NCBI GenBank assembly: GCA_963787105.1
Contig: CAWBBU010000010.1
Location: forward strand, 4,017 to 68,016
Length of the DNA stretch: 64,000 nucleotides
Direction of reading: 5' to 3'
Source: an uncultured Bacillota bacterium
GTDB lineage: Bacteria > Sysuimicrobiota > Sysuimicrobiia > Sysuimicrobiales > Segetimicrobiaceae
The notes under the pieces were generated by a model that saw nothing but the letters and a program-made list of their open reading frames with translations, was not told where the DNA came from and did no database searches. How positions within the stretch are numbered: position 1 is the first letter of the stretch; every line of letters begins with the position of its first letter. Position numbers and translations under genes: made by a program. This document shows positions 16,044 through 26,881 of the stretch, one piece after another.

Positions 16044-16409
16044 CTACGTCTCACCCGCCTCGATCGGGCGCGTGCGCCAAATCAACCCGATCAGGTCGCG
16101 CCGGATGAAGCCGATGTTGTTGAAGATACGAATGCTGAACGCCACGACGGCCCCGAGGTAGATGTCGAGGCCGAGCAGATCGCCGAGCGCCGTCAAGAGC
16201 GCCGCGAACAGCGTGTTCACGATAAACCCGGACAGAAACACGCGGAGATCGAACCGCCCCGCGACCTGGGCGCGCATCCCGCCGAGCAGCGTGTCGACCG
16301 CCGCGAGGATCGCGATCGCGCTGTATTTCACGTACGTCAGCGGCACCTGGACGCTGACGAGCAGGCCGAGGGCCAAGCCGGCCGCGAGCCCCAGAATCGG
16401 CAACCACAT
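16044..16409 (-). CDS. sbp: small basic protein Sbp (DUF1290)
   Basis: ATG at 16407-16409 lies 5 nt after GGAGGGTAA. MWLPILGLAAGLALGLLVSVQVPLTYVKYSAIAILAAVDTLLGG is typical Sbp. In the track it is fused to the upstream gene only because of a frameshift there. Confidence 0.8.
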   Translation of the reverse strand: MWLPILGLAAGLALGLLVSVQVPLTYVKYSAIAILAAVDTLLGGMRAQVAGRFDLRVFLSGFIVNTLFAALLTALGDLLGLDIYLGAVVAFSIRIFNNIGFIRRDLIGLIWRTRPIEAGET

Positions 16410-16414
16410 CGTGC

Positions 16415-17144
16415 TTACCCTCCTTTGTCCACCGGCCGAGCGAACTGGTGCACGAAGGTCCCCGTGTACGCCGGCAGCCGGATCGTCGCGCTCCATCTCC
16501 ACTGTGACCGGAAAGTCGAACGCCCGCAACTCGTCGAGAATCCCGCCCCGCGCCGTCACGGCCGCATTGAGCACCGCCGGGTCGCCGATGGCTTCGATCC
16601 GGTACGGCGGCGCGAGTCGCCGGGTGTTGCACAGAATCGTCGTCCCGACGCACGAGATCCCGGTCGTGCCGGCGATGCGGTCCTGGTTCACCGCCACCGC
16701 GTCGGCGCCGGCCGCGAACAGCGTCGCCACAACCGCGTGCACGTCGGAGTAGTGGATCAGCACCAGATTCGGATCCTCGCCGGGCCGGAGGCGACGGTCG
16801 CTGTCCGTGATCGTCACCCGCACCCCAGGGCCGGAGACGGGGGTCAGCCCGGCGAGGGCCCGCAGCCGGGCCAACTCCGGGGCCAGCGCAGCGGTCGCCT
16901 GGCGCCCGGCGGCGGCCCGCAGCTCTTCGTCGGCGATCTCCTGACGCAGCGAGACGAGCTGATCCCTCAGCACCGCGTCCTCGCGCTCCGCCTGGCGGTA
17001 CCGGTACGCGACCTCACCGAGCCTGCCGGAAGGCACCTGAAGGCCCGTCTCAATCGAGTGTTCGGTGCGCACCTGCACGACCAGCGCAAACCCCACGGCG
17101 ACCGCGACCGCGCAGAGCAGCACCTGCCAGGGATGCACGCGCAT
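16415..17144 (-). pseudogene. DUF881 domain protein (division-associated), 1-nt frameshift near 16485
   Basis: MRVHPWQVLLCAVAVAVGFALVV (TM), a coiled-coil region, then GPGVRVTITD...HYSDVHAVVATLFAAGADAVAVNQDRI...YRIEAIGDP. After the indel the natural C-terminus IRLPAYTGTFVHQFARPVDKGG* appears in the adjacent frame (TAA 16415-16417). Confidence 0.75.
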
Positions 17145-17158
17145 GATGCGTCCCGCCG

Positions 17159-18073
17159 TCACGCCGCCCCCGCGGCGCGGCGCTCCTCCCGGCCGTCCGG
17201 TGCCACCTGCATCGCGCCCCACTGAATCATCGTGGTCCGGCCGACGATGCCGAGAGGTGCGACCACATCGATCTCGCCCACGGCCGGACGCACGGCGACA
17301 ATCGTTCCGAGCCCGAGGAGATCCCCCGCATCGTCTGTGAGCCCGACCAGCCGGTGCCGGATCGCCCGCGGCGGCAGGGCCTCGATGACGCGGTCGGGCG
17401 CGACACGGCGCCCGGCGTGGATGACAGATCGCTCCGCGCGCACCGCCCCGAGCGTTATGGTCGCAGCACGGGCGTTTCGGAAGTAGCGCGCGAACTGCTG
17501 CTCACGAAACGCGCGGCGCTCGCGGGGCGATCGCTTCCGGACGTCTGGGGATGGACGGAGGCGGTGGATCGCGGTGACCGTCGGCACCTGATTCAGAATC
17601 GGTTCGAGCTCCTCGCCCCGCTGAATCGCGATGAGATGCCGCGGTGCGAGCCGGCGAATCTTGCTCAGCTTCGCGGCGACCGCGGCCCGGCCTTCGATCC
17701 AGCCCGTCGTGTCCACAATCACGACCGCCGCCCCGAGCTCCTGGGCGCGGCCGACAAGACGCGCGGTGCCCTCAAGCAGCGCTGGGAAAACGGTCATCGG
17801 GGACGTGTCTCCGGCAAAATACGCCGCGGTCAGCGGAATCTGCAGCATCTGCCGCGCCGGGCGGTCCACCATGCCGAGCCCGACCGTCGTCGGCGGGCCG
17901 ATGTCCGATTGTCCGATGTCGGCGTCGACGACCCCCGGCGGGCGGCCCGCCCGCACGGCGGCGATGGCCAACGCGGTCGCGGCCGTGGTCTTACCGACGT
18001 CAACCGCTCCGAGAAACATGACGATCCCGGGAGCGCTCAACACCGCCGCGACCGTCTCACGCCACTCCGCCAT
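17159..18073 (-). CDS. Clp1/Grc3-family P-loop protein (putative polynucleotide 5'-hydroxyl kinase)
   Basis: Walker A FLGAVDVGKTT, DADIGQSDIGPPTTVGL, Walker B AAVVIVDTTGW, and HLIAIQRGEELEPIL. This order matches the Clp1 P-loop domain (COG1341-like). Intact 304-aa ORF. Confidence 0.6.
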   Translation of the reverse strand: MAEWRETVAAVLSAPGIVMFLGAVDVGKTTAATALAIAAVRAGRPPGVVDADIGQSDIGPPTTVGLGMVDRPARQMLQIPLTAAYFAGDTSPMTVFPALLEGTARLVGRAQELGAAVVIVDTTGWIEGRAAVAAKLSKIRRLAPRHLIAIQRGEELEPILNQVPTVTAIHRLRPSPDVRKRSPRERRAFREQQFARYFRNARAATITLGAVRAERSVIHAGRRVAPDRVIEALPPRAIRHRLVGLTDDAGDLLGLGTIVAVRPAVGEIDVVAPLGIVGRTTMIQWGAMQVAPDGREERRAAGAA

Positions 18074-18847: not shown

Positions 18848-20806
18848 CTAGCTCTCGAGGACGTTCACCTTCGCCGGGTTCAACTTATCCATCTCGGCCC
18901 CGAAGTAGTACTTGTCCACGTGGTCCTTGCTGATCCGCGTCAGCGCCGTCTTCGGGAACATCGAGAGCAGCTTCCAGCCGAGCGTCAGCGAATCATCGAT
19001 CGACCGGTCCGCCCCGCCCTGGTTGATGAACTCCTGCTCGAACGCGTCCGCGAAGCGGAGGTACATGCGGTCGTTCTCCGTGAGGGCCTCCTCGCCGATG
19101 ATTGCCACCAGCCGTCGAAGATCCAGGCCCTGCGCGTACGCCGCGTACATCTGGTCGGCAACTTGCCGGTGGTCCGCGCGCGTGCGCCCCTTGCCGATAC
19201 CGTTGTTCATCAGCCGCGACAGGCTCGGCAGCGGGTTGATCGGCGGGAAAATGCCCTGCCGGTGCAACGGGCGGCTCAGCACGAGCTGGCCCTCGGTAAT
19301 GTAGCCGGTCAGGTCGGCGATCGGGTGCGTGATGTCGTCGTCCGGCATCGTCAAAATCGGCACCTGCGTGATCGTGCCCTTCTTGCCCTTCAACCGGCCC
19401 GCGCGCTCGTACAGGCTGGCCAAGTCGGTGTACATGTAGCCCGGATAACCGCGCCGGCCAGGGATTTCTTCGCGCGCGGCACCGATTTCACGAAGCGCTT
19501 CACAGTTCGACACGACAAGGCCATTTTCGATCAGAAAGTTGTGCGTGCCTTCGACCGTAAAATCGTAGACGTATCCGTCGTAGTGAATCGGCTCAATGCT
19601 CGTGATCGCATCCAGCACGTACTCCTCCGGACGGCGCCGTTCCAGAACCGCAACGGCCGTTGACGACCCGCCGGCGTGCCGGCTCGCCCCGACCACCGCC
19701 GAGGCCAGACCCGGCCCGGCGGCGTAGATACCGTTTCCGACGGCCAATTCGCCGGCCGGCGTCATGACCGGCCCGTCGGGGGTATCGATCAAGATCTTGT
19801 GGTCAGGCGTGGCCGAAAACTCCGACCCCGAGGCGGTCCGAATGCGCAGCATGCGACCGCGGTACCGGAGCTTCTGGACGTCAGTGATCGCGGCGGGCAC
19901 CGCCGCGCGGCCGTTCCACGACAGCACAGGTGGCAGCGACCCGAGATCGCACTCCCTCGCAACCACGCGGTCGACCAGCCCGCCGATGGCCGCGACCGTC
20001 CCGTCCGCGAGCAACACCTCGGTCTCCGGCGCGAGACAATAGTTCGTCATATCGGTCAGGATCACGAGCACCTGCATATCGAGCTCGTACGCCAGATACT
20101 CGGCGGTGGTCAGCGCCGCGCGCGGCGTCATCAACCGCTCGATCGTCGGGTCGTCCGCGAGGTTCATGAACACGACGCTGCGCGCGAGCGCCCCGGTGCT
20201 CTCGAACTCGTGGATGAAGAACGACGCCTCGCGCTGCGTGATCCCCATCGCGCCGAACACGACCGAAAACTGCTCCGCCTCGCCGAGCACCTTTGCCTGG
20301 CGGGTGATCTGCGCCGCGATCTCGTTCGCCGGCAGGCCGGCGCCCGAGAAGATCGGCAGCTTCTGTCCCCGCACGAGCGTGTTCATCACGTCGATCGTCG
20401 AGATGCCGGTCTGAATAAACTCCGCGGGCTTGTCCCGGGAGACCGGATTCATCGGAGCGCCCAGGACCGGCAGGCGCTTCTCGGGGATGATCGGCGGCAG
20501 CCCATCGATCGGATCGCCGAGTCCGTTGAAGCGGCGGCCGATCATCTCACGGCTGACCGCGATCCGGGCGACGTTCTCGCGCAGGCTGATCGAGGTCTTC
20601 GCGAGATCCATCCCGCGGGTCTCCTCGAACACCTGGATCACCGCGTTTTTGTCCGAGACTTCGATCACCTGGCCGCCGCGCACGCTGCCGTCCTGCACGT
20701 GGATCTCGACGATCGCGCCGTACGACAGGTCGCGCGCGCCCTCGACAAAGAGGAGCGGACCGGAGATGTAACTCACACTGGTGTAGCTCTTCGTCGCGAG
20801 GTTCAT
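18848..20806 (-). CDS. ntpB: V-type ATP synthase subunit B, containing an in-frame mini-intein
   Basis: 652 aa. The exteins total 474 aa ([18 protein letters not shown]..., [14 protein letters not shown], ...[11 protein letters not shown] | [28 protein letters not shown]...), interrupted by 178 aa. Confidence 0.9.
19505..20038 (-). other. class-1 mini-intein (178 aa, no homing-endonuclease domain) inside ntpB
   Basis: Starts [13 protein letters not shown] (block A, Cys1). Has SATPDH (block B TxxH) and [23 protein letters not shown] (blocks F/G, terminal Asn) followed by a +1 Cys. Removing it restores the conserved DMTNY-(C)EALREI junction. Confidence 0.85.
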
Positions 20807-22602
20807 CGGGCCGCCTCCTTGGCCTGTCCGTTGCCGGCGACCGGCACCGCCGTCTTGCCGCTGCCCTTGAACGCGTCCGGCAGCGTCTTCAAAAACTCGT
20901 CGATGTGCGCCCGGAACTTATCGTTCGGCACCTCTTTGAACCGGGCGATGACCTCATTCTGCGGCAGGTTGATGACTTCGTCGATCGTGACGTCACCGCG
21001 CTTGAGCGCGGCGCCCGCCTGCTCGTAAAACGCCCGCATTCCCCGGATCATCCAGTACGCCTTGTCGAGCGAGCAAAACGCGTCGACCTCGCTGAACGCG
21101 CTCTGCTGGAGGAAGAACTCGCGGATCATGCGCCCGAGCTCGATCACGAGGCGATCCTCGTCCTGCAGCGCGTCGGGACCCACCAGCTGCACGACCTCCT
21201 GCAGCCCCGCCTCGCGCGCGAGCATCGAGCTGAGCCAGGCGCGCTGCTCGGTAAAGTCCTTGGCGACGTGCTCGCCGTACCACGCGTTCAGCAGCGTCTC
21301 GTACAGGCTGTACGACCGGTTCCAGTTGATCGACGGGAAGTGGCGGCGATAGGCGAGCTGGGCGTCGAGCGACCAGAACGCGCCGACGATCCGCAGCGTG
21401 CTCTGGGTGACCGGCTCGGACAGGTCGCCGCCGGGCGGCGAGACCGCGCCGACGACCGTGACGGCGCCCACGCGCTCGTCCTTACCGAGCACGACCGCCC
21501 GGCCCGCCCGCTCGTAAAACGCCGACAGGCGGCTCGCGAGGTACGGCGGGTAGCCTTCCTCCGCGGGCATCTCCTCGAGGCGGGACGAGATTTCGCGCAA
21601 CGCCTCCGCCCACCGGCTGGTCGAGTCGGCCATGAGCGCGACCCGGTAGCCCATGTCGCGGAAGTACTCAGCCATCGTCACGCCCGTGTAGATGCTGGCC
21701 TCGCGCGCGGCGACCGGCATGTTGGAGGTGTTCGCGACCAGGATCGTCCGCTCCATCAGCGGCCGGCCGTTGCGCGGGTCCTCCAGCTCGGGAAACTCGA
21801 TCAGCACGTCGGTCATCTCGTTGCCGCGCTCGCCGCAGCCGACGTACACGATGATGTCGGCGTTGGACCACTTGGACAGCGTCTGCTGCACGACGGTCTT
21901 CCCGCTGCCGAACGGGCCGGGGACGGCAGCCGTCCCGCCCATCGCCACCGGAAACAGGACGTCGAGCACGCGCTGCCCCGTGACGAACAGCTCGGTCGGC
22001 TCGAGCTTGCGCGCGGCGGGGCGCGGGACGCGCACCGGCCACGTCGTCATCAGCCGTATCTCGCGGCCGCTCTTGAGCTTGGCGACCACCTCGGTGACGG
22101 TGAACTCCCCGCCGCGGATCTCCTGGACCTCGTCCGCGTCCGCGTCCGGCGGCACCATGATGCGGTGGGCGTACGAATACTCCTGGACCTCGCCGATGAT
22201 GTCACCCGGGCCCACGCGGTCGCCCGCCTTGACCTTCGGGACGAACGTCCACTTCCGCTCGCGGTCGAGCGAGTTCACGATGGCGCCGCGCGAGATGAAG
22301 TCCCCCTGCAGCTCGCGGATCTTGTCGAGCGGGCGCTGGATGCCGTCGTAGACGCCGCTCAGCATCCCTGGGCCGAGCTCGAGCTGCAGCGGCGCGTCGG
22401 TCGACTCCACGGGCTCGTCGACGAACAGCCCGGACGTGTCCTCGTAGACCTGCACGAACGCGGTGTCCCCGTCGAGCCGGATGATCTCGCCGATCAGCTT
22501 TTCCTTGCCGACCCGGACGATGTCGTACATCCGGGCGCCGGCGAGGCCCTTCGCGATCACCGCCGGGCCCGAGATGCGGGTAATCTGACCTACGACCGCC
22601 AT
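20803..22602 (-). CDS. ntpA: V-type ATP synthase catalytic subunit A
   Basis: 599 aa with P-loop [21 protein letters not shown] and [19 protein letters not shown]. Overlaps the ntpB start by 4 nt. Confidence 0.95.
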
Positions 22603-22954: not shown

Positions 22955-23967
22955 CGACGATCTCCCGGCGCGCCACGTCCTCGGGGATCCCGAGCTGGCG
23001 CGCGTGCGCGATGACGCGCAGGTTGCTGACCTCCGCGGCCTTGCGCGCGAGATAGCCGATCACGACGCCCACGCCGAGCGGATCCGACATGTACATCCGC
23101 GCGGCCATCCGCTGAAACGCCTGCTCGATCGCGCGCTCAATGTCGGACAGCGACTCCGTGCCGGACAGTTCGGCCCCGAACAACCGCATCGAGGCGATCT
23201 CGGACAGGCTCGACTGCGGGTCCGCGAGGGCGAGGAAGCGTTCGAGCGGCAGCGTCCCGCCGGGCACGAAAAAGCGCTCGCGCTCTTCGCGGGGCAGGTC
23301 CTTGATCCGCCGCAGCTTCAGCGCCGTCATCGCGTTCGTCATGGTCACCTCCGCCTGCAGATACCGGCGGAGGTCCCCGTCGCCTTCGGTGTCCGCGATC
23401 CGCCTGCCGTACCGCACGTAGGCGCGGTCGAGCGCCGACTCGACGTCGATCAGGCTGCCGCCGCGCTGCAGCGCGTCCGCGCCCTCGCGCATCGCGCGGG
23501 CGAGCGGGTGCATCCAGGTCGTGAGCGTGTCCGCGATCGCCCGGACGTCAGGCAGCTGCACCAGCTCCCGCAGCTTCACCTCGGTCAAGAGGCCGCCGGG
23601 AAACACCGTGCCGAGGATCTCGTCCTGACTGCGGCCGGTGAGCTTGCCGCGGACGATCGCGCGGAGACTCTGCAGGTCGTAGCGCAGCAGGACGACCTCG
23701 ATCAGATCGCGCGCCTCGCCGTCGGCGAAGCTCAGGATCCGCTGCGTCGTGTGGGAGAAGTTCTGCGACAGCCCCTCGTCCACGGCGCGCACGCCCGTGA
23801 AGCGGCTGAGCGCTTCCGCGAGCTCCACGTTGTACGGGGTATCGGCGAGGGCTTGGATCACCGCGTCGAGATCGGGGGCGCGGAACAGCTCATCGAGACG
23901 GGCCGCGGGCGAGCAGGCGCGACTTCATCACCTTGACGCGGGCGTTGATGTACGCGAAGTCACCCAT
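22947..23967 (-). pseudogene. ntpC: V-type ATP synthase subunit C (d-like), 1-nt frameshift near 23900
   Basis: ATG 23965-23967 gives MGDFAYINARVKVMKSRLLA and then hits a stop. The neighbouring frame continues LDELFRAPDLDAVIQALADTPY... (ORF 22947..23861). Total length is 3n+1. Confidence 0.8.
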
Positions 23968-23994
23968 CGGTCGAACGCTCGCCGCTGCGGAGGC

Positions 23995-24577
23995 TCATGC
24001 GCCCCACAGCACCTCGGCGACCCGGGACACGAACTCCCGCCGCGCGCGCGCGAGCCGGCCTTCCAGCGCATTCTCGACCACCGACCGGCCGTCGGCGCTG
24101 ACGAGCCGCACGCCGTCGGAGAGGCCCGGGTTCTCGCGCACCTCGACGTCGAGCCCGAGCGTCTTCGCGGCGTCGCGCGCCGCCGTCCGCGTCTCCGGGC
24201 GACACCTCCAGCGCGTGACCGGGCGTCAGGTCCCGTGCCGCCTCGCCGAGGAACGTCGCGATCATCGCCCGGCGCCGCACAGGATCCGCGGCCGCCGCGC
24301 GCAGGTCGGCTTCCGCCCGCTCGAACACGGTCCGGATCGCCTCATCCTTCGCGGCGAGCACGAGCGCCGCCGCGCGCAGGCTCGCGGTGCTGGTCGCCCG
24401 CGCGATCTCCTGCGTCCGTTCCGTGGCGAGGCGCCGCCGCGCCGCCTCGAGGAATCCGTCGGCGTCCCGGCGGGCGGCGGCGAGGATCTCCTCCGCGCGC
24501 ACGCGCGCATCGGCGAGGACCTTGTCCTTCTCGCCCTTCGCCTCAGTTTCCAGCAGACGGCTCAGCTCGGTTGCCAT
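23995..24577 (-). pseudogene. ntpE: V-type ATP synthase subunit E, 1-nt frameshift near 24195
   Basis: MATELSRLLETEAKGEKDKVLADARVRAEEIL... runs to LEVSP. The adjacent frame then gives ETRTAARDAAKTLGLDVEVRENPGLSDGVRLVSADGRSVVENALEGRLARARREFVSRVAEVLWGA* (TGA 23995-23997). Length is 3n+1. Confidence 0.8.
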
Positions 24578-24599
24578 GGCGACGCGACCTCCCGGCGCG

Positions 24600-24924
24600 C
24601 TAGATCTTGCCGTAGAGGAAGAACGCGAGCGCCGAGCCCCAAGATGACGAGCGTCTCGGGGAGCGCGAACAGCACGAGCATCAGGCCGAACATCTCCGGC
24701 CGCTCCGCGATGACGCCCGCGGCGGCGCCCAAGAGGCGCGACTGCGCGATCCCGGTGCCCACGGCGCCGAGGCCGATCGCGAGGCCCACGCCGATGCCCA
24801 TCGCGCCCGCGCCGGGGCTGAGTTCGGGCTTCGCGCCCGGCTGCTGTGCCGACGCGGCCAGCGCAAACCCGATCACGCAGAGAGCCGCGACGCTCAATCC
24901 TAGCAGGAGCTTCCGGTGCTTCAC
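24600..24924 (-). pseudogene. ntpK: V-type ATP synthase proteolipid subunit K, 1-nt insertion in a C4 run near 24637-24640
   Basis: GTG 24922-24924 lies 6 nt after GGAGGTGG. ...GAGAMGIGVGLAIGLGAVGTGIAQSRLLGAAAGVIAERPEMFG... After the indel the natural end GSALAFFLYGKI* is read (TAG 24600-24602). Confidence 0.8.
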
Positions 24925-26881
24925 GAGACCCCACCTCCGGTGCGTTGAAATGGACGATAGCGATGTCCGGTGTCGTCGTAGTACCTGAACGCCGAGAAGA
25001 ACTCCACCCAGTAGAGACGGGCCGGTTGGAGAACGTGCCCGATGATCGTGATCGCCGAAGAAGATGAGGTGGCAGAGCAGCCCGACGAGCAGGCCCAAGA
25101 TCAAGATGCTGAACCCGCCCCCGACGGTATCGGCGACGATCGCGAGCGCCACCGCCGCCATGCCGACCCCGAAGATTCGCGCGTACGAGACGAACGCGCC
25201 GAACGTGGAGATCGCCTCCATGACCCACATCAGGCTGCTGAGCGACCACGACACGACCACCGCCAGCACGAACAGCACCACGGCGCCCAGGATCAACGGA
25301 CTGAAGAACGCCGTCGGCAGCACCTGCGCCTGGGTCGCCACCCAGAGGAACATCGCCGTGCCGCCGCTGAGGAGCGCGATCGCCTCCAAGAGCCCCGCCG
25401 GTCGTGGTGCCGGACCGCCTTCATCATGTGCATGATCTGGCCGAGATACACCTGCGCCAGCCCGAACCCGACGGACAGGTACAGATACGTCGTCAGGCCC
25501 GTGACCCGGTCGAAGATCGGGTGAAAGCCCGGAATCACCTGCTCGGGAATCTGGCCGAAGAACTCTCCGAAGATCACGCCGAAGATCATGATCCACACGG
25601 TCATCCAGATCAGCAGCGTCGTGACCTGGCGCAGCACCGCCGGGGGCAAGGTAAACCCCAGGTCCAGCCCCGCGATCACGGCCCGCCACGGCTTGCCCGC
25701 CCGCGCCTTCCCGGCGAAGAAGAGCGTCATCGCCACCCAGATCAGGCCGTACCCGACGTCGCCGACGATCAGGCCGACCCACAACGGCAGGGCGACCGCG
25801 AACCAGATCGTCGGATCGAACTCGCCGTACCGCGGCGGATCGAAGATCCCCATGAACAGCTGGAACGGACGCAGCCACGCAGGGTTGTCGAGCAACACCG
25901 GGACCTTCTCGGCGTGCTGCACCGGCGCCGGCTCGTCGTACACGACGATGTCCTTCGAGAACCGCTTCGCCATCTCGGCGCGGACCGCCGCGACCTCGCG
26001 CGTCGGCACCCATCCGTACAGGAGAAACGCGTGCGCCGACTGCGGCGTCTGCAGCATCAGCTCGAAGCGGTGCACCGCGTCGCGTGCGACGGTCGCGATC
26101 GCGACCACCTCCGCGCGGGACTGCTGGGACAGGCGCATCAGGCGCCCGCGGATCTCCTCGAGCTCGCCGGGCAGCCGCCGGCCGCGCTCCTCGAGGAACG
26201 GCACGGCCTCGCGCAGCGGCATCCCCTGGACGCTCGCGGGCAGCCGGAGCTCGCTCGCGCCCGCGCGGGTCAGCGTCGCGCGCACCGCGTCGGCGTCCTC
26301 CGGGGCAAACGCCACGACTACTCCGATCCGCCGGTCGTCCACCGGGCGCATCACCACGACCGCCCGGTTCTGCGTGGTCCTGGCGAGCTCGCTCCGCACG
26401 GCCTCCGCGGCGCCCGGCTTCGCGTCGAGCAGGAACCCAGCGGACTCGACCCGCGTGCTGCCTTCGAGCAGCGCGAGCAGCGGGCCCACCACCCGAATCG
26501 TCGATCCGTACGCGCGGAGCAGCTCGAGCTCTTCCTCGGCGTCCAGCAGCTGACGGGTCAGGTCTTTCGCCTGCGCGTCCACCGGCGCCACGCGCTCCCG
26601 CAGGGCCTCGGGGGATCTGCGTCGAGGTACGACCCCGTTTCCACGGGGGGAATCTCGATCACGGGCAGCAGCGCGAGCACGCCCTCCGCGAGCGCACGCA
26701 CGCCGTCCCACGCCGCGCGCGTGCCCTGATCGGCCTCAGACAGGGGACGCGGGGCGAACGTCTCGTCGGCGGGGCGGACATGGTCCACGTGGAGCGCGCC
26801 CAGGTCCTGCACCGATTCGACCACCTGCCGCTGCAGGCGCCGGGGACCGACGACGGTGACCCGGCTCATCGAAACGATCAC
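24921..26881 (-). pseudogene. ntpI: V-type ATP synthase subunit I (a-like), three frameshifts (near 26612, 25400, 25055)
   Basis: N-terminus MIVSMSRVTVVGPRRLQRQVVESVQDLGALHVDHV (26558..26881). Middle part in ORF 25293..26711. Membrane part LLEAIALLSGGTAMFLWV...SYARIFGVGMAAVALA in the 24562..26013 frame. The last segment AITIIGHVLQPARLYWVEFFSAFRYYDDTGHRYRPF... ends in a TGA overlapping the ntpK GTG. Confidence 0.8.

Follow-up and report, generated by a model that had tools for sequence, protein, structure and literature searches.

A 64,000-nucleotide stretch of the genome of an uncultured Bacillota bacterium (GTDB lineage Sysuimicrobiota; Sysuimicrobiia; Sysuimicrobiales; Segetimicrobiaceae; GenBank assembly GCA_963787105.1, contig CAWBBU010000010.1, positions 4,017 to 68,016 of the forward strand; hereafter the window) encodes a B subunit of the V/A-ATPase (ntpB/atpB) whose reading frame is interrupted by a class-1 mini-intein without a homing endonuclease. 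This identification follows from profile matches, invariant catalytic residues, a confidently modelled HINT fold and homologues that run contiguously through the site with no intein. We consider it probable (roughly 0.85) that the element is an active intein that descended from a LAGLIDADG intein of about 520 amino acids (aa) at the same site through one internal deletion; the anatomy, homology, fold, sequence constraint and distribution are observed, and the splicing chemistry and activity are predicted. The intein is genuine but fairly ordinary, belonging to one of two clusters of mini-inteins that, together with the allele at a further locus (L001), share one deletion; the picture at the level of the family is of more interest than the single copy.

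Identification of the mini-intein

The translated ntpB precursor was matched by NF003235 (V-type ATP synthase subunit B, NCBIfam; 747 bits, in two stretches separated at residues 259/431) and by the Pfam families PF02874, PF00006 (in two stretches) and PF22919. An earlier reading made from the sequence only had described a 652-aa product with a 178-aa insertion at 19505..20038 that starts with Cys, contains the block SATPDH and is followed by Cys, and all of these details were confirmed, the lengths and position exactly. Excision of the insertion in silico yielded a 474-aa B subunit, which aligned to subunit B of Thermus thermophilus (3a5c_D) at 768 bits with no gap at the junction, the site corresponding to Y263/C264 (here and below a slash marks the splice junction). 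The insertion interrupts the core of the nucleotide-binding domain between ...LTDMTNY and CEALREI, immediately following the ...VLVILTD strand. It splits PF00006 at approximately profile positions 115/116 of 213, such that the N-extein covers this profile up to about position 115. The empty-site nucleotides at the junction are CTGACCGACATGACCAACTAC / TGCGAGGCGCTGCGCGAGATC. Coordinates of the precursor and its parts are given in Table 1.

Intein profiles matched the insertion well above their cutoffs, with 53.2 bits for Pfam Intein_splicing (cutoff 35.8), 55.6 bits for TIGR01445 (intein N-terminal region; cutoff 24.5) and 31.8 bits for TIGR01443 (intein C-terminal region; cutoff 15.6), and a Pfam scan of the precursor gave no match to endonuclease families (LAGLIDADG, HNH or other) at E<=1. 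In an alignment of 25 sequences of the B-subunit intein family (A2), Cys1 (C257 of the precursor), T77, H80, D159, H166, S177 and N178 were invariant. The TxxH motif of block B is present as T77-P-D-H80, block F reads YVYD159FTVEGTH166NF, and block G reads LVVSN, ending in Ser177 and Asn178. The +1 Cys belongs to the host protein itself, since 74 of 79 intein-free loci read ...NY-C-E... at this position and the others carry Ala or Ser. The WCT triplet of class-3 inteins was not found: block F has no Cys, block G is VVSN and Cys1 is present.

An AlphaFold2 model built on the 25-sequence family alignment adopted the HINT fold with a mean predicted local distance difference test score (pLDDT) of 86 and a predicted template modelling score (pTM) of 0.78. 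Within the model the N-lobe had pLDDT values above 90, and values below 50 occurred only at intein residues 116-129 and 132-135, i.e. in the linker. When the model was compared with the PDB using Foldseek, the first 12 matches were all inteins and the rest were inteins or other HINT-fold proteins (Hedgehog, BIL); the best were PhoCDC21-1 (6rpq, E 4e-10), Pho RadA (2lqm/4e2t), TvoVMA (4o1s, template modelling scores 0.76/0.79) and Mja KlbA. By sequence, the best match of solved structure was the Pyrococcus horikoshii RadA mini-intein (E 1.6e-7). The Pho RadA mini-intein and the PhoCDC21-1 MCM intein are the closest solved folds (E 4e-10 to 3e-9), but they sit in other host proteins and are only 21-24% identical to the window's intein in structural alignments, and Pho RadA ends in the canonical His-Asn whereas the window's intein ends in Ser-Asn.

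The profiles, the invariant residues, the fold model and the intein-free homologues together support the proposal of the sequence-only reading that a class-1 mini-intein without an endonuclease interrupts the protein at CEALREI. On alignment, the expected residues of blocks A, B and F are all present, and block G retains the terminal Asn but has Ser in place of the penultimate His, a deviation that the sequence-only reading did not mention. As a 178-aa natural mini-intein with a Cys/Cys pair and an unusual Ser-Asn end, from a high-GC uncultured bacterium, it is a possible scaffold for protein engineering.

Table 1. Parts of the ntpB precursor gene and of its intein, in window coordinates.
Feature	Coordinates	Strand	Description
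ntpB/atpB precursor (V/A-ATPase subunit B)	18848..20806	-	652 codons + stop
N-extein	20039..20806	-	residues 1-256; N-terminal beta-barrel and first half of nucleotide-binding domain
Mini-intein	19505..20038	-	178 aa; precursor residues 257-434
HINT N-terminal lobe	19718..20038	-	intein residues 1-107; block A Cys1, block B T77-P-D-H80
Linker, ~28 aa	19634..19717	-	intein residues ~108-135; boundaries approximate
HINT C-terminal lobe	19505..19633	-	intein residues ~136-178; block F and block G
C-extein	18848..19504	-	residues 435-652 + stop; starts with the +1 nucleophile Cys

A family of inteins at the same B-subunit site

A search of proteins clustered at 90% identity, with the whole precursor as query, returned the window's own protein (P0007, on a 266,794-nt contig) among its matches and at least 53 clusters with an intein at the same Tyr/Cys junction (D[ML]T[NS]Y/C ... 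SN/CE[AS]LREI). Approximately 47 clusters consist of B subunits of 944-1008 aa with inteins of 496-535 aa that contain PF14528 (LAGLIDADG_3). Mini-inteins, of 178-180 aa, occur in two clusters, the second of which (P0008; members P0134-P0138; locus L083) is represented by a 92%-identical 654-aa protein with a 180-aa intein. Two proteins, P0011 (899 aa) and P0013 (865 aa), have partly deleted endonucleases, with inteins of 427 and 393 aa compared with 521 aa in P0010, and they look like intermediate stages of endonuclease loss. Both are near-identical to P0010 and differ in their internal endonuclease deletions; their source is recorded as 'src' with no contig, and they are possible artefacts.

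Intein-bearing B subunits were found in metagenome-assembled genomes (MAGs) named as Armatimonadota, as "bacterium", as an Anaerolineales-labelled fragment, as a Thermoplasmatales archaeon (MDA8056308.1, P0129), as Korarchaeota (HIE22712.1, P0287) and as Micrarchaeia, and all of the named members carry no annotation beyond V-type ATP synthase subunit B. The family is sizeable but essentially unannotated, and intein surveys appear to under-report it. The sequence-only reading had regarded a B-subunit insertion as unusual, which remains true of the searchable literature, where only subunit A is tabulated (see below), and is not true of the sequence databases, where the at least 53 clusters with an intein at the same site remove any novelty of the insertion point and leave the identification as an intein standing.

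The 178-aa intein was also searched by itself against 1.84 billion representatives (exhaustive HMMER), which gave 251 matches at E<=1e-3 and a single match at E<=1e-30, the latter being the representative of the full-length B-subunit intein family. The next-best matches, at 35-40% identity, were inteins in archaeal-type MCM, TPP-enzyme, Fe-S oxidoreductase, hydrogenase and TruB proteins. A separate search with the intein as query returned six fragments of IntC plus C-extein, all of which begin 40-60 residues before ...SN/CEALREI, as might be seen with half of a natural split intein or with an error of gene calling. The window's open reading frame (ORF) is continuous, however, the frame at a related locus (L002) runs to the contig end, that at L001 is broken by a frameshift, and full-length single-ORF homologues are abundant, on which grounds the fragments are regarded as artefacts of contig ends or frameshifts and this account was rejected; its probability is negligible.

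Comparison with known inteins of the V/A-ATPase

No description of a B-subunit intein was found in a full-text literature search that included Swithers 2009, Novikova 2016, Beyer 2022 and papers on Anaeramoeba and on arCOGs, and in Table 2 of Novikova et al. 2016 V-ATPase subunit A is the only V-ATPase subunit among archaeal intein hosts (PMC4760082). The A-subunit VMA inteins occupy two sites, vma-a (Sce VMA1/PI-SceI) and vma-b (Pho, Tli and Tvo VMA), both located at the P-loop of subunit A or directly beside it (PMC8966425, PMC2814812). They resemble the window's intein in their HINT fold and homing-cycle biology and in interrupting a paralogous P-loop subunit of the same complex, but they differ in residing in the other subunit, at non-homologous sites, and share only ~24% sequence identity with it. 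The window's B-subunit site is ~75 residues beyond vma-a/vma-b along the domain. The aligned position of the A subunit (...STSRW/AEALREI, ~residue 332) is uninterrupted in the window, and the window's A subunit (20803..22602) is likewise uninterrupted at GPFGSGKT and VYVGCGERG. InBase presumably also holds an entry from the early 2000s, 'Mka VatB', for an intein of A-ATPase subunit B of Methanopyrus kandleri, which would be archaeal and large in contrast to the bacterial mini-intein. M. kandleri was absent from the matches of a profile search with the full-length inteins, an absence that carries no weight because the candidate prefilter of that search was saturated.

One of the weaker matches to the window's intein, with E 1.9e-7, was a subunit A of 753 aa from JGI (P0208) with a mini-intein of ~170 aa in the P-loop, GGFGTGK/C...LLHN/TVTEQ, which is the vma-b site. 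A placement of vma-b at ADS/TSRW, near the window's site, was considered and rejected, since vma-b is in the P-loop (PMC8966425; P0208, GTGK/C...HN/T).

Origin of the mini form

Full-length B-subunit inteins (P0016 of GCA_030157125.1, P0129 and P0287) share with the window's intein an identical insertion point, the Ser-Asn end and the native +1 Cys, and their HINT lobes are homologous to those of the window's intein (40-73% identity). They differ from it in having ~340-370 more residues, PF14528 (LAGLIDADG_3) and both LAGLIDADG motifs, and because they carry an endonuclease they are presumably mobile. When P0016 was compared with the window by tblastn, residues 1-363 and 720-984 aligned, corresponding to intein residues 1-107 and 464-520, and ~356 residues of the P0016 intein, including both LAGLIDADG motifs, are missing from the window's intein. 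The C-terminal half of the window's linker still aligns to the post-endonuclease linker of the full-length relatives. The same deletion architecture is found in the window, L083 and L001, which are independent assemblies (L001 being 90.6% identical and syntenic), and among these three mini alleles the linker is divergent, with several indels. On these alignments, the window's mini-intein is best described as a ~520-aa LAGLIDADG intein minus ~356 aa of endonuclease and accessory region, with the linker as the probable scar.

Constraint and functional state of the intein

The ratio of nonsynonymous to synonymous substitution rates (dN/dS) was estimated by the Nei-Gojobori method between the window and L083. 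Values were 0.057 and 0.060 for the N- and C-exteins, 0.035 and 0.081 for the N- and C-lobes of the HINT domain, and 0.76, i.e. nearly neutral, for the linker. The HINT lobes are constrained to the same degree as the host protein, a pattern that is expected if splicing is still needed, and this argues, if indirectly, for active splicing.

Several observations count against this interpretation. The dN/dS values come from one pairwise comparison with few codons per segment; the window's assembly is seemingly error-prone, making single linker residues uncertain; and the penultimate residue of the intein is Ser177 rather than the canonical His, although Ser is common to the whole family, including its endonuclease-bearing members. 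Inteins without a penultimate His are known to splice. In addition, four operon genes are frameshifted; were these changes genuine, the operon would be in decay, and the constraint seen along the lineage would be no guarantee of present function.

The frameshifts were located by comparison with the intact locus L084 (GCA_030157125.1). Frame changes were found in subunit I (~26615, ~25396 and ~25045), K (~24634), E (~24190) and C (~23910), all six within 2.9 kb (window 23900-26850, - strand), and this clustering is unexplained; F, A, B and D and the five downstream genes, ~10 kb in all, are intact. Compared with L001, four of the frameshifts are a single extra C and one (~25392) is a missing base, while ~26615 lies outside L001. 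L001 has 1-nt indels of its own that break E, C, A and B, at positions other than those in the window. Since scattered indels thus fall at differing places in the window and in L001, both assemblies look error-prone, and the frameshifts in I, K, E and C are probably assembly errors. The observation in the sequence-only reading that most neighbouring genes carry indels therefore applies to I, K, E and C (4 of 8 operon genes) and fails for F, A, B and D, and its emphasis on the intactness of the ntpB ORF is weak: A, D and F are intact as well and, with the frameshifts most simply explained as assembly errors, an intact ntpB is not remarkable.

These data bear directly on whether the intein could be a splicing-dead remnant in an operon decaying to pseudogenes, in which the B subunit would never be matured. 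The missing penultimate His would suit such a remnant, as would the confinement of six frameshifts to ~2.9 kb, which is unlike uniform random error. However, the catalytic positions are all intact and invariant, the HINT lobes have dN/dS values (0.035-0.08) as low as those of the exteins, the mini allele of P0008 (L083) has an intact ORF in a separate assembly, and the penultimate Ser is found in endonuclease-bearing members too. The different positions of the 1-nt indels in L001, and the single extra C's and missing base where L001 overlaps the window, likewise favor assembly error over gene decay. We consider a dead remnant quite unlikely.

If the intein is active, as we favor, splicing would be expected to proceed as follows. 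After translation, the two HINT lobes would fold and Cys1 would attack the carbonyl of Tyr(-1) in an N-S acyl shift assisted by Thr77 and His80 of block B. The N-extein would then pass to the +1 Cys by trans-thioesterification, and cyclization of Asn178 would free the intein, with Asp159 and His166 of block F predicted to assist in place of the penultimate His. A final S-N shift would give the native 474-aa B subunit, ...DMTNY-CEALREI.... Having no endonuclease, the mini-intein would no longer be able to home and would represent a late stage of the homing cycle. Its persistence would be through vertical inheritance, since any imprecise loss would ruin a highly conserved and essential portion of the nucleotide-binding domain.

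It is also conceivable that splicing depends on redox state, temperature or pH and thereby controls when the B subunit matures. The intein would then be a domesticated post-translational switch on a bioenergetic enzyme, controlling assembly of the V1 head, and more than the remnant of a parasite. In keeping with such a role, the splicing lobes have been under purifying selection long after loss of the endonuclease, a reversible Cys1-Cys+1 disulfide trap would be possible in principle, and the precursor is probably inactive given the location of the site in the core of the nucleotide-binding domain. A purely selfish element should, however, come under the same purifying selection when it sits in an essential gene, because defective splicing would be lethal to function. 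Alleles that lack the intein are common in the closest relatives, so the host has no need of it, and no regulatory features were detected. A regulatory role is accordingly judged very unlikely.

Distribution and the homing cycle

Occupancy of the site was surveyed in GTDB species representatives, using the best 80 of at least 587 confirmed B-subunit loci. Of 82 related loci, 79 span the junction, and 76 of these are contiguous, with a 0-nt gap between the N- and C-extein matches, and the other three comprise one intein at a second site and two frameshifts, none being an insertion at the Y/C site. The closest genome in this set (L003, 93% identity) has no intein at the site, and the only intein at the Y/C site among these best 80 of at least 587 loci is in L004, an "ANGP1" soil MAG in which the intein bears an endonuclease and is partial. 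When alleles were ordered by how closely their exteins match the window's, those with an endonuclease, empty ones and minis were interleaved at 89-92% identity. This sporadic pattern fits a homing cycle in which invasion would be followed by endonuclease decay and then by persistence of a mini-intein or its loss. GC content is 66.9% in the intein, 64.5% in the extein and 68.8% in the whole window, and the nearness of the intein to the other two values gives no sign of recent arrival.

One lineage's B-subunit gene thus displays all of the stages of the homing cycle (empty, endonuclease-bearing, partially deleted and mini alleles), archaeal MAGs have an intein at the same site, and a second site of the gene is taken by a related intein. 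The latter, in a Methanobacteriota MAG (JACRDV010000115.1; L056:4548-6344), is a 530-aa LAGLIDADG intein at ...DLTGYI/CLHGDTEV...NGIISSN/CEGQIVLSR, where intein-free proteins read YITEGQ. It is homologous end to end to the Y/C-site family (33% identity to the Thermoplasmatales intein, E 7e-74), which suggests movement of the intein between two sites of the same B-subunit gene. The family provides a ready data set on how inteins are gained and lost in a host protein whose role is bioenergetic and not replicative.

Two further interpretations of the distribution were rejected. Matches of ~2.2 kb initially resembled widespread inteins in Deinococcus, Coriobacteriia, methanogens and others, but the additional length comes from paralogous alignment to the A gene upstream, and the N- and C-extein matches abut in nearly all loci. 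Recent transfer across domains was unsupported, as the window and Thermoplasmatales alleles are ~54% identical in the HINT lobes and ~60% identical in the exteins.

Synonymous codons flanking the site (window 20039-20059 and 19484-19504) were compared with those of L001, L083, L084, L004 and L002, a small sample. The -1 Tyr codon is TAT in 4 of 4 independent readable occupied alleles and TAC in 6 of 7 empty neighbors (L012 being TAT), including all five of the closest empty neighbors. On the C-terminal side, most occupied alleles read GAA GCx CTT and most empty ones GAG GCG CTG, despite the GC-rich host. This difference may be a tract of co-conversion, a mark of immunity to the endonuclease or plain shared ancestry.

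Host and operon context

The B subunit of this high-GC host shares 80-83% identity with its counterparts in Candidatus Fervidifonticultor and Candidatus Sysuimicrobium (phylum Candidatus Sysuimicrobiota) and in MAGs that bear the label Armatimonadetes/Armatimonadota. The ntpB ATG overlaps the stop codon of the A-subunit gene (ATGA). Genes of the operon are ordered I-K-E-C-F-A-B-D and are followed by CLP1_P, DUF881, DUF1290, GAPDH and PGK, an arrangement also seen in the intact locus L084. A CLP1_P/CbiA-like ATPase, DUF881, DUF1290 and GAPDH-PGK(-TIM) follow the ATPase operon in the window (16044-18073, - strand), L001, L002 and L084, and this downstream synteny may serve as a marker of the lineage.

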